In this document: positions 1,198 through 44,051 of the stretch, one piece after another
Numbering within the stretch: the stretch's first letter is position 1
Layout: each line of letters opens with the position of its first letter
Assembly (NCBI GenBank): GCA_964526475.1
Contig: CAZGKF010000001.1
Location: 12,138 to 76,137 of the forward strand
Direction of reading: 5' to 3'
Source: an uncultured Bacteroidaceae bacterium
GTDB lineage: Bacteria > Bacteroidota > Bacteroidia > Bacteroidales > GCA-2748055
DNA: 64,000 nt
Translations under genes and position numbers: made by a program
Notes under the pieces: model-generated
What the model was told of the DNA's origin: nothing
Databases searched by the model: none
What the model saw: only the letters and a program-made list of their open reading frames with translations

Positions 1198-1462
1198 ATT
1201 TACACTTTATATGCTAAGAGACTACCTTAAAATGTAGAATTTATTATTTGTTTTTCCGTTTTAAGGCTACTTATTATTCATATCTCTAAAAAAATACAGA
1301 ATAATCAAACCGTACATGCGGTTAAGATTAATAATTTTTAACTTTGTTAGTGAATGAGCTGTAACAAAGGAATCATTGCTTCTTCCCTGGGTGGGAAAAC
1401 TTATAATTTACAAAGAATAACAGGTGTTTAAAAAATATTTCATTTCAGGAATAATCCGGAGC

Positions 1463-3669: not shown

Positions 3670-3873
3670 TTGCTTTTCCCCACCGATCCTGTGGCAATAG
3701 ATAGAATTGGATATGATATAATACTTAAAAAGCGTATGGAAGAAGGTATACAGGAAGAAGAAGTTACGACAGCAAGGAGATTTATGGAGCTTGCAGAAAA
3801 TTTAAAACTGGGAATTGCTGAATTCTGTAAAATTATGGTAAAAAAATCGAATTGTAATAAATTATGTTTTTAA
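3670..3873 (+). pseudogene. C-terminal remnant of a DUF362-like protein
   Basis: The 67-aa ORF has a TTG start. TDPVAIDRIGYDII...LAENLKLGIAE resembles the extreme C-terminus of roughly 400-aa DUF362 proteins. No N-terminal part is present. Confidence 0.4.
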
Positions 3874-3905
3874 CCTGTTGTAATAAATTCTTTAATTAAG
3901 AAAAC

Positions 3906-24514: not shown

Positions 24515-24963
24515 ATGGGAAAAAAATAATATTACTATTTGGGTTTTCAGGTATATTGAATATTTCATTCTCACAGGAATTTGCTGAAATTATATTATTT
24601 AATGGTGATACCATAAAAGAACAATTAATTAGCAGAAAAATCAAATACTCGAAAGACAGTATATTCCTACATTTCAACCCATTCAAAAGGTATGCCTGCC
24701 CGGATGAGATTACCAGGCTTAAAACTACAGATCTTCATCTCATATCAGCAAAAATTATCTCACGAAATAATGATATTGTTGCAGAGTTCATTGAACCTCT
24801 GATAGCTGGTTTCATCAGTCTTTATCAGAGTTATGACAGTAATGGTAAAAAATTGTTCTATTTACAAAAAGAAGATTCCTTCATTTATCATATACCGGAT
24901 AAATTCTTTAAAGGATATATTCTTTTATTTTTTTTTTCTATTTTTGCACTTTCAAAATTTTAA
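24515..24963 (+). pseudogene. Small secreted protein gene whose ATG and signal peptide are out of frame because of an A7 tract
   Basis: ATG 24515 (ATG GGA AAA AAA TAA) stops after 4 codons. With one extra A in the run 24520-24526 it would read MGKKIILLFGFSGILNISFSQEFAEI..., continuous with the 24556-24963 ORF. Confidence 0.4.
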
Positions 24964-24976
24964 AAATCACTCTTTT

Positions 24977-26107
24977 ATGAAAATCGGTATCCTGAAAGAA
25001 TCACGGGAAGAAAACAGAGTTGCACTTTTGCCTGACTCTGTTACTTCTCTTATTAAAGCAAAAGTAAAGATATTGGTTGAAACCGGTGCGGGCATGTCAT
25101 CCTTTGCTTCTGATAATGAGTATAAGGAGGTTGGAGCTGAAATTTTATCTAGGGAGAAAGTTATTGAAAATTCTGATTTACTTGTTAATATCCATCCACC
25201 TGATAGTACTTCTCTGGGCAAAATGAAGTCTGGAAAGGTTCTGCTGGCTGTCATTAACCCTTTTATGAATACAGAAATCGTAAAAGAACTGGCATCAAAG
25301 GGCATCACCTCGTTCAGTCTTGATATAATTCCAAGAACCACCAGGGCGCAGTCGATGGATATTCTATCTTCACAAGCAACTGTTTCAGGATATAAAGCTG
25401 TAATTGATGCTGCTGCAAGGTTTAGCGGGTTTTTCCCCATGCTTATGACAGCTGCGGGAACTATAAAACCTGCCAAAGTTCTTATTTTGGGTGCCGGGGT
25501 AGCAGGTCTGCAGGCAATTGCCACTTCCCGGAAACTGGGAGCCGTAGTGGAAGCCTTCGATGTCAGAACAGCTGCAAAAGAGGAGGTTTTAAGCCTCGGG
25601 GCAAAATTCATTGAAGTGGAAGGAGCTGTTGATGATAAATCAGCCGGAGGTTATGCAGTTGAACAAACAAATGAATTTAAAAAGAAGCAGCAGAATGTTA
25701 TCCAGGAGCATGCCGGTAAGGCTGATATAATTATCTGTACAGCGCAGATACCTGGGAGAAAGGCTCCCCTTCTCATCCTCAAAAAGACCGTTGAAGCCAT
25801 GCAAAGCGGATCAGTAATTATTGATCTGGCAGCTTCTACAGGCGGAAATTGCGAACTTACAAAAGATAATGAAGTAGTAATACACAATCAGGTTACTATT
25901 GTGGGTAATTCTAACTATCCTTCAGAAATGCCAACAGATGCCAGCCAGATGTTTGGTAGAAATGTCCTGAATTTCCTTAAACTTATTATTGACGATGAAG
26001 GAAATCTGAACCTTAACTTCGAAGATGACATTGTTCAGGGTACCTGCCTTACTCATAATAAAGAAATAGTTCATCAAAAAGTCAAAGAAACTATTAATCC
26101 ATCATAA
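24977..26107 (+). CDS. pntA: NAD(P) transhydrogenase subunit alpha part 1
   Basis: MKIGILKESREENRVALLPD and the LGAGVAGLQAIATSRKLGA Rossmann motif. The ORF-track start at 24833 is an upstream extension. Confidence 0.9.
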   Translation: MKIGILKESREENRVALLPDSVTSLIKAKVKILVETGAGMSSFASDNEYKEVGAEILSREKVIENSDLLVNIHPPDSTSLGKMKSGKVLLAVINPFMNTEIVKELASKGITSFSLDIIPRTTRAQSMDILSSQATVSGYKAVIDAAARFSGFFPMLMTAAGTIKPAKVLILGAGVAGLQAIATSRKLGAVVEAFDVRTAAKEEVLSLGAKFIEVEGAVDDKSAGGYAVEQTNEFKKKQQNVIQEHAGKADIIICTAQIPGRKAPLLILKKTVEAMQSGSVIIDLAASTGGNCELTKDNEVVIHNQVTIVGNSNYPSEMPTDASQMFGRNVLNFLKLIIDDEGNLNLNFEDDIVQGTCLTHNKEIVHQKVKETINPS

Positions 26108-26117
26108 ACATGAAAAA

Positions 26118-26426
26118 ATGGAACAAATATTAAGCTTTTTCTGGGAAAACAAAGATGCGATATTCATTATCGTTCTCTCTGTTTTTCTTGGCGTGGAAGT
26201 AATCTCCAACGTCCCCTCAGTTCTTCATACACCTCTTATGTCAGGGGCAAATGCAATCAGTGGGGTAATCATTATCGGTGGCATAATACTGGTAGGACAT
26301 GCCGATTCATTACACGAATGGGTACTGGGTATTTTCTCAGTTCTGCTTGGCACTCTCAATGTGGCAGGTGGATTTGTTGTGACAGACAGGATGCTGGAAA
26401 TGTTTAAAAAAAAGAAAAAAAAGTAA
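26118..26426 (+). CDS. pntA: NAD(P) transhydrogenase subunit alpha part 2 (membrane)
   Basis: 102-aa protein with three TM helices, TPLMSGANAISG. Confidence 0.9.
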   Translation: MEQILSFFWENKDAIFIIVLSVFLGVEVISNVPSVLHTPLMSGANAISGVIIIGGIILVGHADSLHEWVLGIFSVLLGTLNVAGGFVVTDRMLEMFKKKKKK

Positions 26427-26429
26427 GAG

Positions 26430-27851
26430 ATGAATACATTGATAAACCTTTATATACCTTCAACAGGCGAAATTATCCTTGAGTTGAGTTACCTGGTTTC
26501 CGCCATATTTTTTGTGGCAGGGCTGAAACTTCAAAGTCATCCTGATTCAGCCCGCAAAGGAAATCTTTGGGCTGCCTCCGGTATGCTTCTGGCAATGATC
26601 ACTACTCTCATCCTTCATAAAAATGGAGACGGGGAGAATATTTCCCTTTTTAATGCTGTCATTATCGTTATTTCTATTTCATTTGCCGGAATTGTTGGAG
26701 CCGTTATTGCCCGCAAGGTTAAAATGACAGCTATGCCTCAACTGGTTTCATTTTTCAATGCAACAGGCGGAGGTGCATCTGCCCTCGTGGCACTTATTGA
26801 GTTCTCAAATCCGGATAATGAATCCTCCCTAGTCACCTTGCTGGGTTTGATCATTGGAAGTATTGCTTTTAGCGGTAGTTTGATTGCTTACGGAAAACTT
26901 GATGGAAAAATAGGAGATATTTTTGCAGGCTTTATGAAATACCTCAATCTTTTTATGCTTGCTTCTGTGCTTTTCCTTCTGATATTCATGCTTGCCGGTA
27001 ATTTATCTCCTGAAATATTGCAATACCTGGTTTATATTTTACTGGCAGCAAGTCTTATTTACGGAATAACTTTCGTTATGCCTATTGGAGGGGCAGATAT
27101 GCCGGTAGTGATTTCCCTTCTTAATTCTTTTACAGGTATTGCTGCAGCAATGGCCGGATTCATATATAATAACCAGGCAATGATACTTGGGGGAATACTC
27201 GTAGGAGCGGCCGGATCTATTCTTACCCTCCTGATGTGCCGTGCAATGAACCGTTCCCTTATCAATGTGATAATTGGAGCTTTCGGAGGCGGTGGAGCCG
27301 GTATTGACAGGGAAGCAGGAACAATAAAAGAGATATCAGTTAGTGATGCCGCTATACTCCTGAGTTATACACAGAAGGTTGTAATAGTTCCGGGATATGG
27401 TCTCGCAGTAGCCCAGGCTCAACACCTTTGTAATGAACTCGAAAAACTCCTTGAAGAAAAAGGAGTTGAAGTGAAATATGCCATCCATCCCGTTGCAGGA
27501 AGAATGCCCGGGCATATGAATGTATTATTGGCAGAGGCTGATGTTCCTTACGAAAAACTGAAGGAGATGGATGAAATAAATCCCGATATGCCAAATACAG
27601 ATGTAGTTATAGTAATCGGGGCAAATGATGTTGTAAACCCCGCAGCCCTCGATGATACATCCAGTCCTATATACGGTATGCCTATTATCAAAACCCACGA
27701 AGCCAGAAATGTGATCGTCATGAAGCGTGGAATGGGTAAAGGATATGCTGCGATTGAAAACTATCTGTTTTATATGGATCGCACAAGGATGTTATTTGGA
27801 AATGCCAAAGATTCTCTCCAGAAACTGGTTACTGAAATAAAAAGTCTCTAA
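26430..27851 (+). CDS. pntB: NAD(P) transhydrogenase subunit beta
   Basis: Multi-TM N-terminus with a C-terminal dIII domain (VPGYGLAVAQAQH, HPVAGRMPGHMNVLLAEA, GANDVVNP). Confidence 0.95.
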   Translation: MNTLINLYIPSTGEIILELSYLVSAIFFVAGLKLQSHPDSARKGNLWAASGMLLAMITTLILHKNGDGENISLFNAVIIVISISFAGIVGAVIARKVKMTAMPQLVSFFNATGGGASALVALIEFSNPDNESSLVTLLGLIIGSIAFSGSLIAYGKLDGKIGDIFAGFMKYLNLFMLASVLFLLIFMLAGNLSPEILQYLVYILLAASLIYGITFVMPIGGADMPVVISLLNSFTGIAAAMAGFIYNNQAMILGGILVGAAGSILTLLMCRAMNRSLINVIIGAFGGGGAGIDREAGTIKEISVSDAAILLSYTQKVVIVPGYGLAVAQAQHLCNELEKLLEEKGVEVKYAIHPVAGRMPGHMNVLLAEADVPYEKLKEMDEINPDMPNTDVVIVIGANDVVNPAALDDTSSPIYGMPIIKTHEARNVIVMKRGMGKGYAAIENYLFYMDRTRMLFGNAKDSLQKLVTEIKSL

Positions 27852-27857
27852 AAAATC

Positions 27858-27889
27858 AGCCGTTACAAAAAAATGTAACGGCTTTTTTT
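27858..27889 (+). terminator. Rho-independent terminator after pntB
   Basis: AGCCGTTACA-AAAAAA-TGTAACGGCT followed by a T-run. Confidence 0.85.
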
Positions 27890-28083
27890 ATTAACAATCG
27901 TTAAACTCATAATTTACTGAAAAACTGTGATTTGGAATATTATTTTAGTAGCTTGCATGCAACCTTTTAGAATAAATATGCGTATTAATATGTAACTTTC
28001 AGAAACTAAATATCAGTTTGTTCAGTATTTTGCTCTGAACTATTTGATAGTTAAAGAGAACCGGAGATTAATCGGACACAGGA

Positions 28084-31000
28084 ATGTTAGGAAAAAAACA
28101 TATTTCCAGTACAAAATATTCATTTTTAAGTGAATGCCCTTCCTTTTTTACTCATTTAATCGCATTAACTTGTGTTTTTTTCCTTTTTTCTCAAAATACT
28201 CTTAATGCTCAAAAAATCACAAAAGATAATTATTCCGGATATTTCACAGATAACAACTCCTGGCAAAATCCTCCTGCGCCCAACCTTGCTATTCATGAGG
28301 TGGTCATTTACGGTAATATCCAACATATAGGCGATATTTCTTTTCAAAGGAATCTGACCATACATGACACTCTAAGGATTTTTGGAAATGTAGAGTTAGG
28401 GAATAACTGTGATCTCACCGTCAGCCCGGGGGGTATTTTTATTGTTTATGGCAACTACCTTTCGAAAAACATGGTTGATGTACTTGCCGAAGGCTACCTC
28501 ATCGTTACAGGTACATTTAAACAAGAGGGGGCCGACGGATTTGGGAGTTTTGATATTAACGGGGGCAATGTTTTTATTTTCGATCCGAATCCTGATGTCA
28601 AAGAGGGACTTAATTATGAAGACCTTCAATGTAATCCTGACTGCCTTTATGGTAACGAAGAAGATTTGCAAAATGACCCAATATGGCAATTTTTCGAATC
28701 CGGTTCATATAGTATCTCTGCATCGGGGCCAACAGAGTTTTGTGATGGGGATTCCGTAACCCTGTCGGTAACCGATGATGGCTCCTGGTATCAATGGTAC
28801 AGGGATGATACTGAGATTCCCGGAGCTGACTCATTTTCCTATGTTGCTTATGAATCCGGGGCCTACCACATAAGAATGCTGGTCGGATCAGACACCCTTA
28901 GTCTTACCCCTGTAACCGTAAATGTAAAAACCAACAGTATTTCTCCCGTTTCTGCATCTGTTGACCGCGATAATGTATGTCCGGGAGATGGGAATATAGT
29001 ATTATCCTATACCGGAGGAAGTCTGGGAACGGGCGCAATTGCACAATGGTACTCCGATGCAGGATTTTCAATAAATGTGGGTTCCGGCAACGACCTTGTA
29101 CTTGCAACCCCTTTGACCACAACAACCTATTATGTAAGATTTGAAGGCGATTGCGATACAACCACAACAGCATCGGTAATATTAACCGTGCTTCCCGCCT
29201 CTCCGGTCCCGACGATAAGTCTTAATCCTATATCGCCTATACCAGCCTCAGCCAACAGTACTAATCTTGGATACTCAGCTGTTACAGGGAGTCCTTCGCT
29301 TTATTCCATAACCTGGAGTGGGGCAGCCATAACAGCTGGTTTCATAAATGTTACGGACGCTGCTTTTCCGGCCAGTCCCATTTTAATTAACATCCCTCCG
29401 GGAATAGAGGCTGGTCAGACATATACAGGCAACCTAATTGTAATGAATGATTGCAACACAAGTGTAGAATATCCTTTTAACATTTCAGTACTTAACAAAA
29501 TCCTTGGTATTGATCCCCATGCCACAGCAGCTTATTCATTACGGAAGCTCAGTTCAACCTATTCAGGGCCTGCGGTAAGGGTTAGGCGGAGTAGCGACAA
29601 TGCAACACAGGACATTGGTTTCAATGCAGAAGGGAATCTCGACGAGGTTGCTCTACTGGCATTTACAGGAGCAGTAAATGCCTATATTACTATATGGTAT
29701 GATCAGAGTGGAAACTCGCAGAATGCGTTGCAGGGCAATACGAATTACCAGCCACTGCTGGTTGAAAATGGAATAGTACTGAAAATTAACGGAAGGGCTA
29801 TGCTGCGTTTTGATGGTTCAAATGATTTGCTCAACTACTCAAATCCTCCAGCCAATAATTTTTCAATTTTCACACTTGCCAGGACAAGCCTGACCCATCA
29901 AATTGACCCGGAATCAAATTCAGGAACAGAGGGAACTGCCGGGCAGCTTTATCTTTTAGGAGCTCCACACGGAGGCACAAATGCAGGTCAGGGTATTTCT
30001 TTTGGCACAAACGGTATTTCCAATTATGAACACGGAGCCGGCTACATGCCGGCAACTGCCGTTTACTCAGGAAACGTGACAGGGCTGAGTCAGATAAATG
30101 TTCTATACACTAACCGGCGGGCAAGGATATACCTTGATGGTTTGCTGGTAAGAACAGGAGTATTATCGGGAAGGCCTGCTGTTACAGCATCAACTCAAAT
30201 TGGATCAGGTTCTTATGGGGCTTTTAATGGTGAAATACCGGAATTAATAATATTCCCATCATCACTATCCGATAGCGACAGGCAAACTATTGAATTTGAT
30301 CAAGGCTGCCACTATTTAATTGCAGGACTTACCCCCGGAGTTATACCCGGTATTGCAGATGATGCAACAACAGCATCCCTTCCTTATACCGAAGGGACAA
30401 ATCAGATATGGACATATAGTATTACATGGGATGCCAATGCCATAGCTGCAGGATTCAACAATATTGCAAACGAAACTCTCCCCGTTAGTCCGGTTACTAT
30501 TACAGTACCTTCCGGCTTATCCGAATCAGATGTTTTTTCCGGTACGTTTAGCGCAATAAATGCATGTGGAAGCAGCATACCAGACCATCCTATAACCATT
30601 CGTGTCCTGAACAGAATTCTGGGGAATGACATCTATGCAACAACAGCCTTTTCTGTCCGAAGAATAGCGCCAGCATATTCCGGTCCTGCCATGCGACTTA
30701 CAAGAACCAGTGATGGAGAATTCAGGGATGTTTATTTTGATTCCGGGGAAACCGTTTCTTTAAATTCCCCTGTTTCCGTTGCAGGCGGAGGAACTTCAAC
30801 AGCATTAACCCTTAGCGGTTGGATAGGGGGAAGTTCCGCAACCGTGAGAATATGGTATGACCAGAGTGGTAATGCAAAGCATGCCAATCAGTCAAATATT
30901 GCTGCACAGCCACTTATAGCTAATAACGGGGAACTTGTTTTGATTAACACCAGGCCGATGATTCAGTTTGACGGTGTTAATGATATAGTATCCTACAGCA

Positions 31001-37000: not shown

Positions 37001-39837
37001 CTTTATACAATATTGATCTGCACGAAGCTGGCATTGATCATGTTGCGGACTCTGAATACTGGACGTTACAGAGATCTTCCGGCACATCTGCAGTGGATGT
37101 AACTATTTCCTGGGATGGCAATGGTTGTTGTATTTCAGACCTGGCGACACTGAAAGTAGCCATATGGGATGGGGCAGAATGGAAGAACTATGGAAATGGA
37201 GGCACAAACGGCACATTAGGTTCCGGAGATATAACAACAGCTAATGTTGTAGATCTCAATTCCTGTGCAATAACTTTTGCAGACCACTTACCCATTGCTG
37301 ATTTTACTGACCCGGGCGGACCATATTGCGAATCTGCAGCTCCGTTTATTTTAACTGGAAATCCTGCAGATGCAAATGGAGTGTTTACCGGAAACGGAAT
37401 AACAGATAATGGTGATGGTACCGCACAATTTAATCCCGGTACAGCCGGAAACGGCAGCCATCAAATTACCTACAGTTACACATCAGTATCCGGTTGCAGT
37501 AATTCTGTCAGCAAATATGTAACCGTAAATCCAGGTCCCACCGCAACTATCATCGGAACAGATACCGTTTGTATAGGAACTTCCAATGAATTTTCCATCT
37601 TTTTCACCGGAACTCCACCCTGGGATGTGACTTATACTGACGGGACAAATTCATTTAATGTGGTAACAACTGCAAATCCGTATAAATTTATCACGAATGT
37701 AGCGGCAACATATTCCGTAACGGCTTTAAGTGATGCCAATGGATGTATTGGAACTGTTTTTGGGAGTTCTGCTGAACTGGTAAACTGGCCTGAACCTGCA
37801 AGACCACTCGTCAGCATTGTTTCAGGATCAACTACATTCTGCGAAGGAAACAGCCTGGTATTGGAGACACCTCCGGCATCAATATATTACTGGAATAATG
37901 GAATATCCACACAACAGAACACCATTACTGATCCCGGGAATTATTGGGTAAGTATTGTGAATGAGCATGGTTGTTTTAGCGATAATTCAGATACTACAAC
38001 AGTCATTGTACATAAAACAGCACGCAAACCATCGGCCATTTCAGGGAATGTTGCGTTATGCCAGAACAATGCAAATACAACATATATTACCAGTGCCTGG
38101 TATGCCGATGCGTATATCTGGGACATTCAGCCAACGGTTGCCGGAAACATTATTGGAACAGGTTCGAATATTCAAATTGACTGGGAGGAAACTTTTGCCG
38201 GTGTGGCTAAATTAAGTGTTAAGGGTTCAAACATCAATTGCGGGGAAGGCCCTGTGTCTGACACATTATATATTTCATTAGGTGCTCTGCCTGATAATCC
38301 GGGCCCCATAAGCGGGGATCAGATTGTATGTCAGGGTCAGTCAGCTGTGGGATATAGCATCGACGCGGTTACAAATGCAAGCAGTTATAGCTGGACATTA
38401 CCGGCAAATGCTGTTTTCTCCGGTGCATCAAATAGCAATTCAATTACTGTTGACTACCTTGATGATGCCGTTTCAGGCGACATTACTGTTCAGCCATTAA
38501 ATGCCTGCGGATCCGGTTTAACCACATCATCCCTTGCTATTGATATTCAGTTGATCTCCCTGACTCCCACCGGAATAAGTAAAAGCAATGACAATATATG
38601 CCCCGGTGATCCGGTAACTCTGACTGTTCAGGGCGGAAGCCTGGGTGAAGGAGCTGACTGGAAATGGTATCTTGATGATGCGTTCACTCTGCCTGCAGGC
38701 ACCGACGGCTCACCCATAATTGTTAATCCTCTTGCAAGTACAACTTATTGGGTAAGGGCTGAAGGTGACTGTAACAACACATCTGCGGTCAATACAACAA
38801 TTACTATTAAGGAGCTTCCTGCAGAACCTGACACTGCCACTGTTGACAGGCCTTCTGTCTGTCCTTCCGATGGAAACATTGTACTCTCCTATTCAGGTGG
38901 TTCTGCAGGCACAGGGGGTGCAGCAAAATGGTATTCCGATGCAGGATTTACCAATCTTGTAGGAACCGGGAATGATATTAACCTTCCAGCCCCTGCAACA
39001 AACCAAACCTATTATATAAGATTTGAAGCAGATTGCGGCAATTCGCCGGAAAAATCCGTAACTGTAACAGTCAACCCCTTGCCGGTTGTAACATTCGCTG
39101 CCGTTGATCCTGTCTATGTTGATGATCCCGACTTTACACTGGACAAGGGAAGTCCCACTGGTGGAACTTATTCGGGAACAGGTATAAGCGGCGATATCTT
39201 CAGTCCCTCAACTGCTGGTGTAGGAGTACACACTATTAGCTATACCTATTCCGATGCTAATGGATGTACTGACTCAGCTAACACAGATATTACAGTGAAT
39301 ATAAATATTGTAGTTAGTTTCGATACTGTGGTTCCGGTTTGTATAAACTCTCCCGCTTTTGACCTTACGCAGGGTTCCCCTGCCGGAGGCACATACAGCG
39401 GAACAGGGATCACGACAAGCCCGCAGTTTGACCCTGCCATCGCAGGTGCAGGAACACATACTATAACCTATACCTATACAGACATTTACGGAAATCCACA
39501 TACAGCCGCAAGAGATATTACCGTAAATGCAGTTCCTGTTCCATCCATAAATGGTCCGGCAGAAGTTTGCCAACCCGGAACAGCTGTTTTCTTTACAACT
39601 CTTAACGCAGACCATAGTTATACCTGGACAGTTACCGGAGGAACTATTATTGCCGGTGACGGGACAAACCAGATAAGCGTAGATTTTACCACATCAGGAA
39701 CTGCTGAAATTCAGGTTACCGAAACCAATAATAACACAGGGTGCTCAGGTATATCAGCAACATATGATGTGAATGTGCTTGAAACACCGGTAATTAATGA
39801 AATTGATTCCAATAATAAATTAACATTACGAAATTAA
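28084..39837 (+). CDS. Giant (3,917 aa) multi-domain secreted surface protein/adhesin with no recognisable T9SS C-terminal domain
   Basis: N-terminal signal/anchor (LIALTCVFFLFSQNTLNAQ). It contains many Ig-like CHU_C-associated-type domains (C.GD....L.Y.GG..G....W), HYR-like domains (GG.YSGTG....F.P..AG.G.H.ITYTYTD.NGC), two lectin-like modules, eight 135-aa repeats, a beta-helix-like region and PKD-like domains. It ends ...ETPVINEIDSNNKLTLRN. Confidence 0.9.
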   Translation: MLGKKHISSTKYSFLSECPSFFTHLIALTCVFFLFSQNTLNAQKITKDNYSGYFTDNNSWQNPPAPNLAIHEVVIYGNIQHIGDISFQRNLTIHDTLRIFGNVELGNNCDLTVSPGGIFIVYGNYLSKNMVDVLAEGYLIVTGTFKQEGADGFGSFDINGGNVFIFDPNPDVKEGLNYEDLQCNPDCLYGNEEDLQNDPIWQFFESGSYSISASGPTEFCDGDSVTLSVTDDGSWYQWYRDDTEIPGADSFSYVAYESGAYHIRMLVGSDTLSLTPVTVNVKTNSISPVSASVDRDNVCPGDGNIVLSYTGGSLGTGAIAQWYSDAGFSINVGSGNDLVLATPLTTTTYYVRFEGDCDTTTTASVILTVLPASPVPTISLNPISPIPASANSTNLGYSAVTGSPSLYSITWSGAAITAGFINVTDAAFPASPILINIPPGIEAGQTYTGNLIVMNDCNTSVEYPFNISVLNKILGIDPHATAAYSLRKLSSTYSGPAVRVRRSSDNATQDIGFNAEGNLDEVALLAFTGAVNAYITIWYDQSGNSQNALQGNTNYQPLLVENGIVLKINGRAMLRFDGSNDLLNYSNPPANNFSIFTLARTSLTHQIDPESNSGTEGTAGQLYLLGAPHGGTNAGQGISFGTNGISNYEHGAGYMPATAVYSGNVTGLSQINVLYTNRRARIYLDGLLVRTGVLSGRPAVTASTQIGSGSYGAFNGEIPELIIFPSSLSDSDRQTIEFDQGCHYLIAGLTPGVIPGIADDATTASLPYTEGTNQIWTYSITWDANAIAAGFNNIANETLPVSPVTITVPSGLSESDVFSGTFSAINACGSSIPDHPITIRVLNRILGNDIYATTAFSVRRIAPAYSGPAMRLTRTSDGEFRDVYFDSGETVSLNSPVSVAGGGTSTALTLSGWIGGSSATVRIWYDQSGNAKHANQSNIAAQPLIANNGELVLINTRPMIQFDGVNDIVSYSNPPENNFSLFTIARTTNTHEIDPQSSSGTGGTNNQRYLMGAANRGDNAGQGISLGTNGISNYEHGNSYMPATAVYTGSVTGLNLVDILYNSRRPYIYLNGNLVRTGIVSPKATVYASYQIGGMNYGYFNGSIPEIIVFPYAVSSTERQQIECNQIEYYSILGPSTASIDTNNICPGDGNITLSYSGGNLRAGATAEWYSDSALTVNVGSGNNLTIPAPINNSEYFVRFEGICNTSLPVSTNITVKELPVEPDTAIVDRSSICPSDGNILLSFSGGSSGTGGIAKWYTDAAFTNLVGTDNDISLPAPAATQTYYIRYEADCGNSPSDSVTVIVNPLPVVTLDSLSPVCLNTASFALNGGNPIGGNYSGTGVSGGNFVPATAGAGTHSITYTYTDANGCTNSATRDIMVNTVPTVTFDAVSPVCVDAPAFDLAQGAPAGGTYSGTGITASPQFDPATAGAGTHTITYTYTDANGCDNSADRDITVHSLPVVSFSGLDPFFPITDPSTTLSGDPAGGTFSGPGISGDTFDPSLAGLGIHEIVYEYTDGNGCTNSDTLYTEVLDYDFMLGAITLTDLNNWYSGDAVYTTTGATADGQVGSCWNYGNDHTRWFKFQATTNQIAATFLTGSSFGTVRRINAAIWESDGTTQVNCNRYISDYDSVVVESPDLVPGNWYYISVTSGTGGYRGTFSLRVNDQVDYDYYEGAIELTDITNWESPDAVYTTRGATADKNAAPCWNTSPNYNRWFKFQATTNTISILVRRGGAYGTIRRINAAIWEADGTSMVSCNRYIGNNDSVYVESVNLTPGNWYYISVDNNYSGYRGTFSLRVDTRVTYDYIEGAYELQDLNNWCSTDAIFSTYGATPDLNPGSCWNTSPNYNRWFKFVATTHRVNVDIKRGGTLGTIRRINVVIWESDGTTQISCNRYVSDNDNVSVGTDQLIPGNTYYISVDNNYSGYRGSFTLCIDNQMDYDYLEGAKDITTLINSCSNNAEYTTIGATPDRTAPPCWNTSPNYNRWFKFMATTQSINVQLKRGGVFGTLRRAQIALYDKDTTTVLDCNRYVNDNDDIEVAYEGLTPGEWYFISVDNNYSGYRGTFTLCLDDKPSYDFYEGAIELGIIHDWSSDNEAYTTIGATPDKNTASCWNTGPNYNRWFKFTATTSQIHIKIRRGGVYGTIRRVNAAIWEADGETEVNCKRYVNDNDIIEVESINLIPGNTYYLSVDNNYSGYRGTFSLYINDVVDYDFYEGARDVSHLINSQSSDQEYTTIGATSDKNPGSCWNTSPNYNRWFKFQATTPGINIIVLRGGSYGTIRRVNVALFDADGTTELSCNRYVNDNDIVELDFEGLVPGNWYYFSVDNNYSGYRGTFTLALNDAVSYDYYEGAIELTDIHNWSSPDAAYSTLGATPDKNAASCWNTGPNYNRWFKFTATTPVINVEVRRGGSYGTIRRINAAIWEADGITEVACNRYVNDNDNISVGANILIPGNTYYISVDNNYSGYRGTFSLYIDDAMDYDFYEGAHEITDLNNWESGLAEFTTLGATADKNAASCWNTSPNYNRWFKFQAIYTDVSIQVLRGGAYGSIRRINLALWESNGTTELACNRYASNDDNVSVTFSGLIPGNWYYISVDNNYSGYRGTFTLQVSNVSGNVYYAIADGNWNTAATWSLSEGGPPAVSSPANGDVVYIKGFDVTVSGTETCAELNIETENDQTSLTIDAGTLTVNGELSFVNNGYNVDGFMSILNSGNLSVIDDLVKDRSGGSNTFQLLVQDNSTLFVGNDMNIFSSAGSTINNEFTVSGTATVQIDQDLILQNTGGIKSIITLNNSAELKVKRDIRLTSSAQDKMEIELNNDSRLYPGRTIQRDATPYGILDCNDNSTLVFNSSDYLQIIPENAGAGSDNFSYQNIEVNNTRVSVPQLSLEGPVSVPGTLTLTNGVILTSSENLLTIENTGSISGGSVNSYIQGPIEITGNTAVTFPVGRNGRYQPITVSAPSLISDAFIAEYFDANPNPLYNIDLHEAGIDHVADSEYWTLQRSSGTSAVDVTISWDGNGCCISDLATLKVAIWDGAEWKNYGNGGTNGTLGSGDITTANVVDLNSCAITFADHLPIADFTDPGGPYCESAAPFILTGNPADANGVFTGNGITDNGDGTAQFNPGTAGNGSHQITYSYTSVSGCSNSVSKYVTVNPGPTATIIGTDTVCIGTSNEFSIFFTGTPPWDVTYTDGTNSFNVVTTANPYKFITNVAATYSVTALSDANGCIGTVFGSSAELVNWPEPARPLVSIVSGSTTFCEGNSLVLETPPASIYYWNNGISTQQNTITDPGNYWVSIVNEHGCFSDNSDTTTVIVHKTARKPSAISGNVALCQNNANTTYITSAWYADAYIWDIQPTVAGNIIGTGSNIQIDWEETFAGVAKLSVKGSNINCGEGPVSDTLYISLGALPDNPGPISGDQIVCQGQSAVGYSIDAVTNASSYSWTLPANAVFSGASNSNSITVDYLDDAVSGDITVQPLNACGSGLTTSSLAIDIQLISLTPTGISKSNDNICPGDPVTLTVQGGSLGEGADWKWYLDDAFTLPAGTDGSPIIVNPLASTTYWVRAEGDCNNTSAVNTTITIKELPAEPDTATVDRPSVCPSDGNIVLSYSGGSAGTGGAAKWYSDAGFTNLVGTGNDINLPAPATNQTYYIRFEADCGNSPEKSVTVTVNPLPVVTFAAVDPVYVDDPDFTLDKGSPTGGTYSGTGISGDIFSPSTAGVGVHTISYTYSDANGCTDSANTDITVNINIVVSFDTVVPVCINSPAFDLTQGSPAGGTYSGTGITTSPQFDPAIAGAGTHTITYTYTDIYGNPHTAARDITVNAVPVPSINGPAEVCQPGTAVFFTTLNADHSYTWTVTGGTIIAGDGTNQISVDFTTSGTAEIQVTETNNNTGCSGISATYDVNVLETPVINEIDSNNKLTLRN
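29194..31480 (+). repeat. Two tandem modules of about 370-385 aa inside the giant gene (about 100-aa YSITW domain plus a concanavalin/LamG-like module)
   Basis: Module 1: ...SLYSITWSGAAITAGF...ILGIDPHATAAYSLRKLSSTYSGPAVRVRRSSDNATQDIGF...IWYDQSGN...FDGSNDLL.YSNPP.NNFS. Module 2: ...TYSITWDANAIAAGF...ILGNDIYATTAFSVRRIAPAYSGPAMRLTRTSDGEFRDVYF...IWYDQSGN...FDGVNDIVSYSNPPENNFS. Boundaries are approximate. Confidence 0.7.
31485..32460 (+). repeat. Intragenic duplicated block A (2 Ig-like plus 2 HYR-like domains)
   Basis: Collinear with 38555-39540 at both protein and DNA level. Example: PVEPDTAIVDRSSICPSDGNILLSFSGGSSGTGGIAKWYTDAAFTNLVGT versus PAEPDTATVDRPSVCPSDGNIVLSYSGGSAGTGGAAKWYSDAGFTNLVGT. 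Confidence 0.65.
32677..35916 (+). repeat. Eight tandem repeats of exactly 405 nt (135 aa) encoding an uncharacterised two-Cys domain (PPC/pre-peptidase-C-terminal-like by motif order)
   Basis: Units start at 32677, 33082, 33487, 33892, 34297, 34702, 35107 and 35512. Consensus: DYDFYEGAIELTD...YTT.GAT.DKN..SCWNTSPNYNRWFKF.ATT..I.I...RGG.YGTIRR.N.AIWE.DGT.E..CNRYV.DND...V....L.PGN.YYISVDNNYSGYRGTF.L. Confidence 0.95.
38555..39540 (+). repeat. Intragenic duplicated block B (paralogous to 31485-32460)
   Basis: See block A. Example: ITTSPQFDPAIAGAGTHTITYTYTD versus ITASPQFDPATAGAGTHTITYTYTD. Confidence 0.65.
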
Positions 39838-39899
39838 CAGGCTAATAAATAATAAATGAACCTTAATAATAATAATTAAACATTAATAATAATCACTAA

Positions 39900-40703
39900 A
39901 TGTTAAACACGATGAAAACAAATTCAGTACTCAGAACTCTTGCGATCGCAGTATTCGCAGTAATCTTCTCAAACTCTCTCGTTGCCCAGTTTGTAGGCAG
40001 CACTACTAATGATCAGCTTCCTATCGTTGAAGAACGAAAAGGAGGTACCACAACCTACTCAGTACCCGGCCCCGCTGGTGACGAATATACATGGGCCGTT
40101 ACAGGTAATGTTGTAAGTATTACTCCTGCTCCTGCTGCGGGTGGTGATGGATCTGCAGGAAATCCTTATATAATTGAATGGGGAGTTGGAATAACATCAA
40201 TAGATGTGGAATGGGCAGCTGATGATAATACTATCACCTCAGTAGCCGGAAATGTGTCGGTTCAGCAAAGACTTACCAGTGGCACAATTACTTGCCCCAG
40301 TGCCATTCAATCCTGGGACATAAGTCTGTGGAGTGAAGCTAACGCTGTCATTGAGGATGCTGATTATGAAATTTGCTCCGGCGATGCCACATCAGGAGAT
40401 ATAACCGTAAGGTTTACCGGTGCACCAAACTTCGATTTCACCTATACGGTTACAGGTCTTGACGGAATAACCGGTGCTCCACAGGTTGTGACGGGTATTA
40501 CAGGGGCAACAACCACTATTCCTGTCCCTGCAAACCTCGTGAATACAAGTTCAACAGTGGATCAGACTTATGTGGTTACCCTCACACAAATGAATGATGG
40601 ATTTACAGGGAACGGAACAGCAAGTTCTGTATTTACAATTACTGTACATCCAACTGTAGTAACCGGACCAATCTCCAGCGACAGGTCACTGACCAGAAGA
40701 TAG
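39900..40703 (+). CDS. Secreted 267-aa protein built from two domain types also present in the giant protein, with a similar C-terminal tail
   Basis: Signal peptide (LRTLAIAVFAVIFSNSLVAQ), a PKD-like YTWAVTGN... domain, and an ICSGD..ITVRFTGAPNFDFTYTV domain. It ends ...PTVVTGPISSDRSLTRR. Confidence 0.75.
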   Translation: MLNTMKTNSVLRTLAIAVFAVIFSNSLVAQFVGSTTNDQLPIVEERKGGTTTYSVPGPAGDEYTWAVTGNVVSITPAPAAGGDGSAGNPYIIEWGVGITSIDVEWAADDNTITSVAGNVSVQQRLTSGTITCPSAIQSWDISLWSEANAVIEDADYEICSGDATSGDITVRFTGAPNFDFTYTVTGLDGITGAPQVVTGITGATTTIPVPANLVNTSSTVDQTYVVTLTQMNDGFTGNGTASSVFTITVHPTVVTGPISSDRSLTRR

Positions 40704-40908
40704 AACTACATTTATCTGATCATAAGATGAATGAATAAATTATAGTTGAATTACTTGAGATATTAGTAGTTATGACTTAGAGTACTGAAATATATGAATG
40801 CTTTTTTATCCCGAAAAAGACGTGATCCTGCTTGCGGGCAGGATTACAGTCAGGGATGGAAAAATGAAAGAATCTTTTATTAAAGGATTGGAAACTTATG
40901 AGTATGTA

Positions 40909-41910
40909 ATGAAATATTACAAATATATATGGCTCATAGTGATCATGACCGGAATGTCGGTTAATTCCGGGGCACAATATTTAAATATTGTCTGCCCCGG
41001 TGATACCGGACATATTTACAGGGTCAGTGGTTCTGAAGGATCATCGTTCGTATGGACGGTGAACGGTGGAACTATTGTCCAAAATTATAACGATTCCGTC
41101 AAAGTTAACTGGGGTAATACCGCCGGGGAATTCGAAGTTCGTGTTCAGGAATTTTCAAAATTCGGATGCCCATCGCTCCCTGTTTCAGGCATGGTACTGG
41201 TATCGGCTCCGTCCCTTGACCTGGGTGATGATATTGAATTATGCCAGGGAGAAACTTCTGTGATTGTTCCTACTGGAAATTATGTATCTTACCTCTGGCA
41301 TGACGGGAGCACAGCCCCAACATATCTTGCAAGTAATCAAGGTCTTATCTCCCTTGAAGTTTCTGATGAATACGGATGCAAACGATCTGACGACCTTTTT
41401 GTAACTGTTCATCCCTTACCCAGGGTTAACCTTGGCCGGGATACCACTTTATGTGGTATAGAATCACTTATTCTTGACGGAGGAAGCGACGGAGCTTCCT
41501 TCAACTGGTCGACAGGTGATGTAACAAGGGAGATTACGGTTTTCAGCGGACAGCAAACAATTTGGCTCAGGATCAAAGATGTATTCAATTGTGAAAATGC
41601 AGATACTATTATAATCCGGGCTTGTTCAAGTACCGATTATTTTAAGGATATCCCGACTGCATTTACGCCTAACGCTGATGGCCGAAATGATGAATGGAGA
41701 ATCCCTCAGCTTGAAGCTTTCCCTTACGCTGTTATGGAAATATTTGATCGCTGGGGTAATCTTGTATTCCGCTCGGATCCGGGATATTCATCACCCTGGG
41801 ATGGAACATCAAAAGGAAGAGAAATGCCAATGGATTCTTACTATTTCGTTATTAAACTGAATTCAGGGGATATGGAGCCCGTTGTAGGCACGGTAACAAT
41901 TATCAGATAG
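40909..41910 (+). CDS. T9SS type-B C-terminal-domain (gliding-motility-associated CTD / CHU_C) protein
   Basis: Signal peptide from ATG 40909 (MKYYKYIWLIVIMTGMSVNSGAQ), then Ig-like and PKD-like domains. The C-terminus reads IPTAFTPNADGRNDEWRIP...MEIFDRWGNLVF...WDGTSKGREMPMDSYYFVIK...GTVTIIR. Confidence 0.9.
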   Translation: MKYYKYIWLIVIMTGMSVNSGAQYLNIVCPGDTGHIYRVSGSEGSSFVWTVNGGTIVQNYNDSVKVNWGNTAGEFEVRVQEFSKFGCPSLPVSGMVLVSAPSLDLGDDIELCQGETSVIVPTGNYVSYLWHDGSTAPTYLASNQGLISLEVSDEYGCKRSDDLFVTVHPLPRVNLGRDTTLCGIESLILDGGSDGASFNWSTGDVTREITVFSGQQTIWLRIKDVFNCENADTIIIRACSSTDYFKDIPTAFTPNADGRNDEWRIPQLEAFPYAVMEIFDRWGNLVFRSDPGYSSPWDGTSKGREMPMDSYYFVIKLNSGDMEPVVGTVTIIR

Positions 41911-42050
41911 GCAGGTCTTTGGATTGATTTGTCAGCAACTTTTTCCAACTGTATTTATATCTGTATTATCTTTCGGATGAAAAAAAGATTAAAGTATTTA
42001 TTTAAATTTGTATTTTTTATTAAATTCTAACAACGGGTAGGTTTTTCCAG

Positions 42051-43016
42051 ATGCGGTTATTATTGTGTATAATACTATTAAGTCCCATTCTCTGCATTAA
42101 GGCACAACAAGTTCCCCTTTACAGTCAGTATATGATGAATGGTTTCCTCCTGAATCCGGCAGTTGCAGGGAGTGAAGGTTATACGGCCATTAACATTACA
42201 GCCAGGGAACAATGGCTGGGACTTAAAAATGCTCCGAAAACACATGCTATCAGCGGGCAAACCAGAATTCTTAAAAACTCTTATATTTCAAAATCCTCAT
42301 CAGTAAGAAGAAGACAAAAGTTAAGTTCCAGAAGTGGAAAAGTAGGTCTTGGTGGCTATATTTTTAATGACAAAAATGGCCCAATAAACAGAACCGGACT
42401 TCAACTATCATATGCATACCATATAAGGATGCAGCAAAGTCAACTTTCATTCGGAATATCAGGCTTGTTTTACCAGTTCTCTGTCGACCAGTCAAAAATT
42501 CGTTTTGAAGAACAGGATGACTTTTATGAGTTTGCAAATAAGACTATTATGATCCCTGACGCTAATGCAGGGGTGTATTATTCCGACCCTAAACTTTTCA
42601 TTGGGTTTTCAGCCTCACAACTATTTCAGTCAGCTCTCCGGCTCGGGGAAAAAGGTTATGCAGAATATAAGATGAAAAGATATTACTACCTCACAGGAGG
42701 TTACGATATTGAAATAAATCCGACACTTACCATAGAACCTTCCTTCCTGCTAAAGAGCAATGAAAATATGGTGTGGCAGCTTGATTTTAACACTAAATTC
42801 ATTTTCAACGAAGAGTACTGGGGAGGATTATCTTATCGCACCGGAGGTGCACTGATCTTTATGGGTGGAGTTCAGGTTGATAAATTTTTATTTGGTTATG
42901 CTTTCGATTACACTTTCAGCAGTATTATGAAACACAGTTACGGATCTCATGAGTTTATGATTGCAATAAGGTTTGGTGATAACGCCAGAAGGTACAGATG
43001 GCTTAACAGATATTAA
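42051..43016 (+). CDS. PorP/SprF-family type IX secretion system outer-membrane protein
   Basis: Signal peptide, then QQVPLYSQYMMNGFLLNPAVAGSEGY...REQWLG. The remainder is beta-barrel-like and ends RWLNRY. A candidate TAAATTTG box lies at 42003-42010. Confidence 0.9.
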   Translation: MRLLLCIILLSPILCIKAQQVPLYSQYMMNGFLLNPAVAGSEGYTAINITAREQWLGLKNAPKTHAISGQTRILKNSYISKSSSVRRRQKLSSRSGKVGLGGYIFNDKNGPINRTGLQLSYAYHIRMQQSQLSFGISGLFYQFSVDQSKIRFEEQDDFYEFANKTIMIPDANAGVYYSDPKLFIGFSASQLFQSALRLGEKGYAEYKMKRYYYLTGGYDIEINPTLTIEPSFLLKSNENMVWQLDFNTKFIFNEEYWGGLSYRTGGALIFMGGVQVDKFLFGYAFDYTFSSIMKHSYGSHEFMIAIRFGDNARRYRWLNRY

Positions 43017-43091: not shown

Positions 43092-44051
43092 CTATATTTT
43101 CACTATTCTGTAATTTTTAAATTCCCCGAGACGCCTATTAAAAAGCAGATTCTTTTCCAGCCAGGAAATCATCCTGTATTTTAACTTCTCATGTTTATTC
43201 CTCAGAAGATTAAAACTTCTGGCAGGACCTGAATACCTGAGATGTTCTTTCCAGTCGAACTGTTCAATCCAGTTTTTCATTACTGCAGGATGTGTTTCTT
43301 TAAATACTGGAAGCCTCGATAAATTGGCATAATCGAATTTTATATTATAGAATTGTAATTTCTCCAACCTTGCTACATTTTCTTTACCCCTGTGATTAAT
43401 GCTGAATGTTTTTATCTTTTTTTGCATCAAATCAGGTGGTCTTACCCAACCGTAATGATAAATATAAGCATCAACAGTTGCCACATTAAGCTTATAGGTA
43501 TTTTCCTGCTGCCGGTAATTAATTCCGTCAAAATCCGGTATTCTCCTGAAAGATTGCGCCGATTCCCATGAGTGGATATCAGGATCGTTCCTGATAATCC
43601 TGATCTCTCTTTCATACCAGCAATGATTATCCTGATAATGATCATAATCTCCCCAGAAATGTCTGTAATTGAAAAGCAGTCCATCCACATTACGATAATT
43701 CAATAATTCCTCGCATCTTTTTTTTATCACCGTAAGATATTTCTCATGCACCACCTCATCTGATTGCAGGTAAAAAAGCCAGTCACCTTCACAGTGGCTT
43801 TTTGCTATATCAGTCTGATGTGCATGTTCCATTCCTCTTGGATATTTCTCTATATCCCAAACTGTGTCAATGATGCGTATTTTATCGGAACCTATAGTCA
43901 ATATTTCATCCCTGGTTCTATCATCTTCGTCACTATCTCCCAGGACTACTATAAATTCGTTAACGATGGGAAGTATAGACATGACAGATTGCTTCATGGG
44001 ATAGTATAGTTTCATAGCATTCTTTCCCATAGTGAACCCGCTTATCTTCAT
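43092..44051 (-). CDS. Putative glycosyltransferase (GT2-like)
   Basis: The N-terminal region (IVVLGDSDEDDRTRDEIL...WLFYLQSDEVVHE) resembles a GT-A fold with an acidic DxD-like motif. This is a weak, motif-level call only. Confidence 0.45.
   Translation of the reverse strand: MKISGFTMGKNAMKLYYPMKQSVMSILPIVNEFIVVLGDSDEDDRTRDEILTIGSDKIRIIDTVWDIEKYPRGMEHAHQTDIAKSHCEGDWLFYLQSDEVVHEKYLTVIKKRCEELLNYRNVDGLLFNYRHFWGDYDHYQDNHCWYEREIRIIRNDPDIHSWESAQSFRRIPDFDGINYRQQENTYKLNVATVDAYIYHYGWVRPPDLMQKKIKTFSINHRGKENVARLEKLQFYNIKFDYANLSRLPVFKETHPAVMKNWIEQFDWKEHLRYSGPARSFNLLRNKHEKLKYRMISWLEKNLLFNRRLGEFKNYRIVKI

Follow-up and report, generated by a model that had tools for sequence, protein, structure and literature searches.

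Positions 28084-43016 of the 64,000-nucleotide stretch of contig CAZGKF010000001.1 analyzed here (hereafter the window) are filled by four open reading frames (ORFs) on the + strand. This cassette may encode a type IX secretion system (T9SS) surface fibre that is assembled from separate proteins. An earlier note, made from the letters of this DNA without database searches, had described the products as a signal-peptide protein of 3,917 amino acids (aa), two further proteins of 267 and 333 aa and a PorP/SprF-type protein. The ORFs and translations agree with this order and these sizes, and the last protein has 321 aa. The four genes and the single recognizable T9SS C-terminal domain (CTD) are as follows.

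28084..39837, + strand: gene (a), CTD-less giant, 3,917 aa (ORF and translation)
39900..40703, + strand: gene (b), 267 aa (ORF and translation)
40909..41910, + strand: gene (c), 333 aa (start MKYYKY at 40909)
41650..41901, + strand: type-B T9SS CTD of (c) (PF13585 1.3e-19; TIGR04131 1.9e-20)
42051..43016, + strand: gene (d), PorP/SprF family, 321 aa (PF11751 9e-75; TIGR03519 7e-78)

As read from the sequence, all four proteins begin with a signal peptide of the signal peptidase I (SPase-I) type that leaves Gln at position +1: LNA↓Q in (a) (aa 1-42), LVA↓Q in (b) (aa 1-29), SGA↓Q in (c) (aa 1-22) and IKA↓Q in (d). Gln at +1 after SPase-I cleavage is a pattern typical of Bacteroidota. The spacers between the cassette genes are AT-rich, and (d) starts 140 nt downstream of (c).

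Searches with hidden Markov models (HMMs), which the earlier note had called for, located a CTD in (c) alone, assigned (d) to the PorP/SprF family and detected no CTD in (a) or (b). The type-B assignment of (c) exceeds both family cutoffs, with 72.8 bits for TIGR04131 (cutoff 35) and 70.5 bits for CHU_C (PF13585; cutoff 27). The match of (d) is full-length and equally clear, at 262 bits for TIGR03519 (cutoff 90.55; model positions 3-292 of 292) and 252 bits for PF11751. Cargos of type B depend on a cognate PorP/SprF carrier, to which they stay attached on the cell surface, as exemplified by the pairs SprB/SprF, PG1035/PorP of Porphyromonas gingivalis and Fjoh_3952/Fjoh_3951 (PMC9143113, PMC12618676, PMC12635249).

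A rescan of the final 250 aa of (a) at E ≤ 10 gave no match to CHU_C, TIGR04131, Por_Secre_tail or TIGR04183; Ig-like families alone were matched. The giant ends, as had been read by eye, in a PKD-like domain and a 17-aa tail, with neither a type-A nor a type-B CTD. The whole of (b), rescanned at the same threshold with the same four CTD models, likewise matched Ig-like families alone.

AlphaFold2 modelled (c) with a pLDDT (predicted local distance difference test score) of 89.1. Its N-terminal domain, modelled with seven strands, matches PKD_6 weakly (23.5 bits against a cutoff of 25) and is followed by two small beta domains (aa 109-237) and the CTD. Homologues of (c) form more than 150 clusters, nearly all of 320-340 aa, and the mature N-terminus of (c), Q-Y-[IV]-N-[IV]-V-C, is nearly invariant. 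A longer (c) ORF (40798-41910, 370 aa) runs from an in-frame ATG 37 codons upstream, and the public record P0093 uses that form; the 333-aa start at 40909 is preferred because MKYYKY is where the signal peptide starts and where all orthologues start.

In the AlphaFold2 monomer of (b) (pLDDT 87.8), two beta-sandwiches (aa 36-144 and 148-250) precede a tail (aa 251-267) modelled as coil. The protein belongs to no Pfam or NCBIfam family. A Foldseek comparison of the model with the PDB returned generic tandem Ig or cadherin-like matches only, and a PDB profile search with the (b) family gave only a weak match to Ig domains of Pom152. Homologues of (b) were found in 92 clusters (E 1e-33 to 1e-166) as standalone proteins of ~206-302 aa with their own signal peptide, complete members having ~250-300 aa.

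Comparison of the cassette proteins with one another revealed two shared elements. The term plug is used here for an Ig-like domain together with a conserved terminal tail, I-x-S-x3-L-x-R-R-COOH, and the term socket for an N-terminal PKD-like domain that follows the signal peptide. In the window they lie at the following positions.

39526..39834, + strand: candidate plug module of (a), last PKD_6-like domain (aa ~3815-3900) and 17-aa tail (PKD_6 E 4.2e-10)
39784..39834, + strand: tail of (a), ETPVINEIDSNNKLTLRN-COOH, deviating from the family consensus
40005-40331, + strand: candidate socket domain of (b), aa 36-144 (AlphaFold2 beta-sandwich)
40341-40649, + strand: second Ig-like domain of (b), aa 148-250 (AlphaFold2 beta-sandwich)
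40650..40700, + strand: tail of (b), PTVVTGPISSDRSLTRR-COOH (consensus HPT-x-x-TG-x-I-x-S-x3-LTRR-COOH)
40975-41202, + strand: candidate socket domain of (c), aa 23-98 (starts with near-invariant QY[IV]N[IV]VC)

The earlier note had seen the same PKD-like domain at the end of (a) and at the start of both (b) and (c). For (b) and (c) this was borne out: their N-terminal domains, both directly after the signal peptide, are homologous (hhalign 96.8%, E 2.4e-10). The part of the claim that concerns (a) needs correction, its last domain aligning best with the second domain and tail of (b) and not with the first. This C-terminal homology between (a) and (b) runs from end to end (hhalign 92.2%, E 5.8e-7), so the plug is a shared module of about 105-130 aa and not merely a shared peptide. 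Aligning the (b) family with the (c) family gave the N-domain match only. Judged by sequence, plugs occur in (a) and (b) and sockets in (b) and (c), the middle protein bearing both elements; (c) additionally carries the type-B CTD, and (d) is the putative carrier.

The tails themselves are conserved. Those of the (a) family follow the consensus P-x-I-x-[ED]-I-x-S-[ND]-N-K-L-x-R-R-COOH, and all intact (b) tails end H-P-T-x-x-T-G-x-I-x-S-x3-L-T-R-R-COOH, with T255, G256, I258, L264 and R266 at least 90% conserved in the (b) alignment. Across 17 distinct (a) C-termini, the mean frequency of the top residue was 0.64 in the last 17 columns and 0.53 in the preceding domain. A survey of the 757 ORFs of 80 aa or more in the first 26 loci placed the tail motif at the positions of (a) and (b) and nowhere else, a few chance endings in RR excepted. 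The (a) of the window ends KLTLRN, with an extra Leu and a terminal Asn, where nearly all orthologues end KL-x-RR; similar deviants were seen in L034 (SLNLR) and L035 (SLTPR). A word-indexed homologue search with the last 117 aa of the giant gave no matches. Exhaustive phmmer with the same segment gave 4,682, mostly internal in generic multi-PKD_6 giants and uninformative on the distribution of the tail.

Conservation of the arrangement was assessed in 29 distinct (b) loci, collected from exact look-ups, GTDB species-representative genomes and JGI metagenomes; loci were counted for synteny only where the contig reaches far enough. Those with organism labels come from uncultured Bacteroidales-type metagenome-assembled genomes (MAGs). 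In 26 of 27 loci, an ORF that carries the tail terminates shortly before (b); the exception (L023) is visibly degraded. Downstream of (b), (c) was present in all 24 evaluable loci, L037 included, where (c) overlaps the (b) stop codon. Finally, (d) follows (c) in 19/20 loci; in L003/L004 a second giant with its own CHU_C intervenes. The conserved co-occurrence of the four genes on which the earlier proposal depended is thereby confirmed, and its recurrence in 29 distinct loci is far beyond chance.

The four proteins are conserved to very different degrees. Across loci, identity is ~75% for (d), 55-60% for (c) and ~57% for (b), and in the upstream protein (a) conservation is confined to the last ~110 aa. 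The bodies of (a) are otherwise unrelated, with domains that include HYR, Laminin_G_3, DUF8202 and Ig_7, and their lengths range widely (463 aa in L009, 2,610 aa in L005 and 5,575 aa in L003; the 661 aa called in L007 are perhaps cut by the contig end). A distant cassette, L024, encodes a giant, a 287-aa (b) homologue (97.3%), (c) and PorP, with tails ...PETGPQYHIMNDWP and ...PVTGPIYHISNMWYN. L025 carries a tandem pair of (b) paralogues (96% and 92%) ahead of (c) and PorP, which indicates that the number of connectors can vary. The tails of the (b) homologues in L024 and L025 are variants, e.g. ...TGPIYHISNMWYN.

In one lineage (L003/L004, 12605-20813, and L026) the cassette lies within an array of giants: a gene ending in CHU_C precedes the 5,575-aa CTD-less giant, and after (c) a 5,722-aa giant with its own CHU_C stands in place of the PorP gene. 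These arrays suggest that split and unsplit adhesins may share carriers. Degraded cassettes were also encountered, with (b) truncated or frameshifted in L021 (8001-8687) and L023 (7932-8465) and the upstream giant of L001/L011 called as four ORFs (3,922, 109, 295 and 781 aa); they may reflect sequencing errors in long-read MAGs or real decay.

The (c) module also occurs as the C-terminal end of larger Ig_7/HYR proteins (P0162, P0175, P0181, P0182, P0185, P0188, P0189 and P0191), whose layout is the conventional one. In these unsplit relatives, the linker and A-strand before the first Cys of the N-domain align in register with the cassette tails (VNPAPGITSITGKTNLC from an unsplit relative against the tail VHPTVETGVITSNRTLT). 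For instance, V-N-P-A-P-G-I-T-S-I-T-G-K-T-N-L-C of P0162 aligns with the (b) tail V-H-P-T-V-E-T-G-V-I-T-S-N-R-T-L-T-R-R, and P-V-P-V-F-T-E-T-S-D-R-A-C of P0182 with the (a) tail Q-P-E-I-F-E-I-Q-S-N-N-K-L-I-R-K. From these alignments the cassette resembles a conventional giant type-B adhesin split at the boundaries of PKD-like domains, and the tail looks like a derivative of the linker and A-strand of an unsplit adhesin. Nothing in the cis junctions corresponds to L-x-R-R-COOH, where conservation of the tail is highest.

These observations best fit a proposed surface fibre built from separate proteins in place of one giant type-B-CTD adhesin. As a small type-B-CTD cargo, (c) would be exported by the T9SS and stay bound to its cognate PorP/SprF-type carrier (d), the two forming the conserved anchor. 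The plug of (a) would dock on the socket of (b), and the plug of (b) on the socket of (c), so that the subunits are joined head to tail; (b) would be a two-domain connector and (a) an interchangeable, highly variable distal adhesin. Docking by beta-strand pairing is possible, given the homology of the tail with the linker and A-strand found before this domain in unsplit relatives. A physical chain of (a), (b) and (c) is suggested by the distribution of the shared modules: plugs on the upstream proteins, sockets on the downstream ones, both on the middle protein and a variable number of middle proteins are what a chain predicts. Independent secretion or mere co-regulation does not readily explain this pattern. 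The anchor role of (c) and (d) is proposed by homology to SprB/SprF, PG1035/PorP and GhpA/GhpB. For the modular fibre as a whole, with its anchor, connector and exchangeable distal adhesin joined by plug and socket, we consider the chances evenly balanced.

To cross the outer membrane, (a) and (b), which have no CTD, would depend on (c) and (d): they might travel through the wide SprA translocon in complex with (c), or be captured after export; this route is speculative. In its fullest form, the proposal is a relay in which a type-B-CTD adaptor on a PorP/SprF carrier captures or co-exports, by plug and socket, a connector and a giant that can exceed 5,500 aa. We advance the relay tentatively, as a plausible mechanism that falls somewhat short of even confidence. 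The suggestion of the earlier note that (c) acts as adaptor or anchor for CTD-less partners is strengthened by the plug and socket homologies.

Several results weigh against the fibre assembled by plug and socket. Comparison by eye of tails and sockets across loci disclosed no covariation beyond phylogeny. The window's own (a) tail departs from the consensus at its very end (KLTLRN). The terminal L-x-R-R-COOH could serve recognition by the secretion machinery instead. A split Ig domain in which the tail supplies a missing A-strand was rejected as a candidate: residues -6 to -1, ahead of the first Cys of the domain, are retained in the standalone (c), the N-domain is modelled with seven strands, and simple missing-strand complementation is not supported by the (c) sequence and AlphaFold2 model. 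Finally, the full-text literature, as far as its incomplete coverage extends, yielded no account of this cassette, no case in which CTD-less proteins leave through the T9SS bound to a CTD protein (piggyback export), no CTD-less partners with a conserved C-terminal module and no donor-strand-like T9SS fibres.

Among other explanations, the one that survives best makes the plug a third, hitherto undescribed class of T9SS C-terminal export signal, by which (a) and (b) would be exported individually, perhaps being handed to (d) or another PorP/SprF-like carrier. In that case (c) would be a co-expressed small cargo, and assembly would be secondary or absent. The size of the plug (about 100-130 aa) and its extreme C-terminal position match those of known CTDs, both CTD-less proteins carry it, and conservation of the tail peaks at the terminal L-x-R-R. 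T9SS signals outside types A and B do exist, e.g. that of Flavobacterium johnsoniae ChiA, which counts in favor of a new signal. Nevertheless, no similarity of the plug to type-A or type-B CTD models was detected, and the restriction of the (b)-(c) hhalign match to the N-domains also speaks against it. Moreover, a new signal would leave unexplained the specialised N-terminal domain common to (b) and (c) directly after the signal peptide, the status of (c), a small protein lacking an obvious effector domain, as the best-conserved cargo in the cassette, and the presence of a single carrier gene beside three exported proteins. We regard it as rather unlikely.

Alternatively, (a) and (b) might never be attached to (c) and (d), being periplasmic or exported in some other way, with a genetic linkage that reflects co-regulation or origin by gene fission and tails that are remnants. 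The homology of the tails to the cis linker and A-strand of unsplit relatives would fit relics of gene fission, and the AlphaFold2 models of (b) and (c) look complete alone. Relics would be expected to decay, yet conservation of the tail equals or exceeds that of the preceding domain (for (a), 0.64 versus 0.53), the (b) tail has near-invariant positions and tail conservation persists down to ~40% overall identity; such purifying conservation contradicts a relic. In addition, the terminal L-x-R-R is without counterpart in the cis junctions, and proteins built from Ig, lectin-like and repeat domains to a length of 3,900 to >5,500 aa would hardly be expected to reside in the periplasm. This explanation is accordingly judged improbable.

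An assembly, frameshift or pseudogene artefact, in which one giant type-B-CTD gene is broken into three ORFs, might be invoked from the degraded related loci (truncated (b) in L021 and L023, the giant of L001 in several ORFs) and from the existence of unsplit (c)-containing proteins, but it is refuted, and hardly credible, given that (b) and (c) are each equipped with a separate start codon, signal peptide and Gln+1 site, that the intergenic gaps are AT-rich spacers, that the same split with the same boundaries recurs in 29 independent loci, and that lengths are constant in 92 (b) and >150 (c) protein clusters. The fusion of the giant and the downstream ORFs into one gene in orthologues, about which the earlier note had cautioned, was not seen, all 92 (b) clusters being standalone.

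The cassette was compared with known T9SS systems. Like SprB/SprF-type pairs, it combines a type-B CTD cargo, (c), with an adjacent PorP/SprF-family barrel, (d); unlike SprB, where the giant adhesin has its own CTD, (a) and (b) have no known CTD and carry another conserved C-terminal module. The four-gene operon sprC-sprD-sprB-sprF of F. johnsoniae is similar in pairing two CTD-less proteins with a type-B cargo and the SprF carrier, but gene order and roles differ and the giant is there the CTD protein. SprF has an invariant Cys-x-Cys in its periplasmic C-tail that forms a disulfide with GldK and so couples the two proteins, and SprC moves on the gliding track (PMC12635249). In contrast, the conserved C-tail of (d), GDNARRYRWLNRY, lacks Cys-x-Cys, and (d) and its orthologues (L001-L041) end ...GDNARRYRWLNR[YF]-COOH, a near-invariant periplasmic C-tail that contains no cysteine. 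Without these track-coupling cysteines, (d) is not a gliding-track SprF orthologue, and the cassette differs from the gliding-track system of SprC.

The closest solved structure is GhpA, the Aureispira grappling hook (PDB 9flp and related entries), a giant T9SS fibre. The (c) family profile matches the repeated Ig-like domain pairs of GhpA and its CTD (residues 5814-5895) with an overall E of 1e-172, and GhpA provided the top Foldseek matches of the (c) model. The two systems are alike in having the same repeat domains and CTD and in a PorP homologue encoded next to the cargo gene. GhpA, however, has its CTD on one continuous polypeptide of 5,898 aa and assembles into a homo-heptamer, and ghpA lies beside PorP and PorE homologues. 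In the cassette these parts fall to two proteins: (c) is the equivalent of the last ~330 aa of GhpA, and the long part is represented by (a), a protein without a CTD. The PorE-like GhpC has no counterpart, and the cassette differs in this respect from PG1035/PorP/PorE, Fjoh_3952/3951/3950 and GhpABC alike. No PorE-like (OmpA_C-containing) gene was found beside the cassette and none is listed in the related loci, although a PorE elsewhere in the genome is possible. PG1035 resembles (c) in being a small type-B cargo with no obvious effector domain. Taken together, SprB/SprF, PG1035/PorP, Fjoh_3952/3951 and GhpA have a giant that itself carries the CTD, unlike the cassette.

The proposed arrangement also recalls the type V pili (FimA/Mfa1) of Bacteroidota, whose tip, stalk and anchor subunits are linked through C-terminal donor strands. 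In both, genes for a variable tip, a connector and an anchor held in the membrane stand together, and all subunits but the one at the anchor end have a conserved, strand-like C-terminal extension. Mfa5 illustrates that a T9SS cargo can join partners that are exported differently. Type V pilins, however, are lipoprotein precursors with Arg/Lys-site processing and a FimA-type fold, whereas (a), (b) and (c) have SPase-I Gln+1 sites and no lipobox, and (b) and (c) are predicted to adopt Ig/PKD-like folds. HMM scans of the cassette proteins gave no matches to the Pfam fimbrillin families. The putative anchor is moreover a T9SS type-B cargo on a PorP/SprF barrel and not a lipoprotein, and strand donation would here be hypothetical.

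To our knowledge, current T9SS models give every exported protein its own CTD and every type-B cargo its own carrier. If the modular fibre is real, it would be the first hetero-oligomeric, modular T9SS cargo and would imply either a piggyback mode of export, the wide SprA translocon perhaps carrying complexes, or a new class of T9SS signal. Searches based on the CTD would then miss part of the secretome. Surface fibres could be made from exchangeable parts, with distal proteins of 463 aa to >5,500 aa on a constant anchor. The plug and the socket are short, well-defined sequence elements that could be used to annotate further CTD-less T9SS-dependent proteins or serve in surface display. The uncultured lineage limits immediate experiments; the short cassettes L009 and L007 suit heterologous work.

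The body of (a) was annotated by scans with Pfam and NCBIfam HMMs, which gave Ig_7, PKD_6 and weak HYR- and Ig-like matches. Two ConA/LamG-like modules lie at aa ~470-1100, and a regular repeat array follows.

32680..35910, + strand: eight tandem 135-aa repeats in (a), aa 1533-2612 (RWFKF and GYRGTF motifs every 135 aa)

The spacing of these repeats is exactly 135 aa, with the pattern YDYYEGA...RWFKF...GYRGTF. They match no Pfam family, and Tandem Repeats Finder detected no DNA-level repeat in the giant gene despite the eight protein repeats. By eye they resemble jelly-roll domains of the pre-peptidase C-terminal (PPC) type.

The surroundings of the cassette were also inspected. Immediately upstream lie the pntA/pntB transhydrogenase genes (24833-27851), followed by a hairpin.

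27858..27883, + strand: terminator-like hairpin, 10-bp stem then T run, directly 3' of pntB

This strong hairpin marks the upstream boundary of the cassette transcription unit. The genes beyond (d) are on the opposite strand: first a 319-aa ORF that has no Pfam family (43092-44051, - strand), directly downstream of (d), and then an ATP-binding cassette (ABC) transporter. With the hairpin on one side and opposite-strand genes on the other, the four genes form a discrete unit in a housekeeping chromosomal neighbourhood. A PNTB gene is also found upstream of the cassette in the distant locus L009 (1-426), and the recurrence of this neighbour hints at a conserved chromosomal insertion site. A sigma-70 promoter scan showed no enrichment, with a model that does not cover Bacteroidota promoters. 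The G+C content is 0.41-0.45 at 28001-42000, compared with 0.34-0.40 in the flanking housekeeping genes; the higher value could stem from the Gly/Thr/Ala-rich composition of Ig domains or from foreign origin. Elsewhere in the window, and unrelated to the cassette, positions 1424-3640 encode a 738-aa protein that combines a patatin-like phospholipase with an Omp85-superfamily barrel, a PlpD-like architecture.

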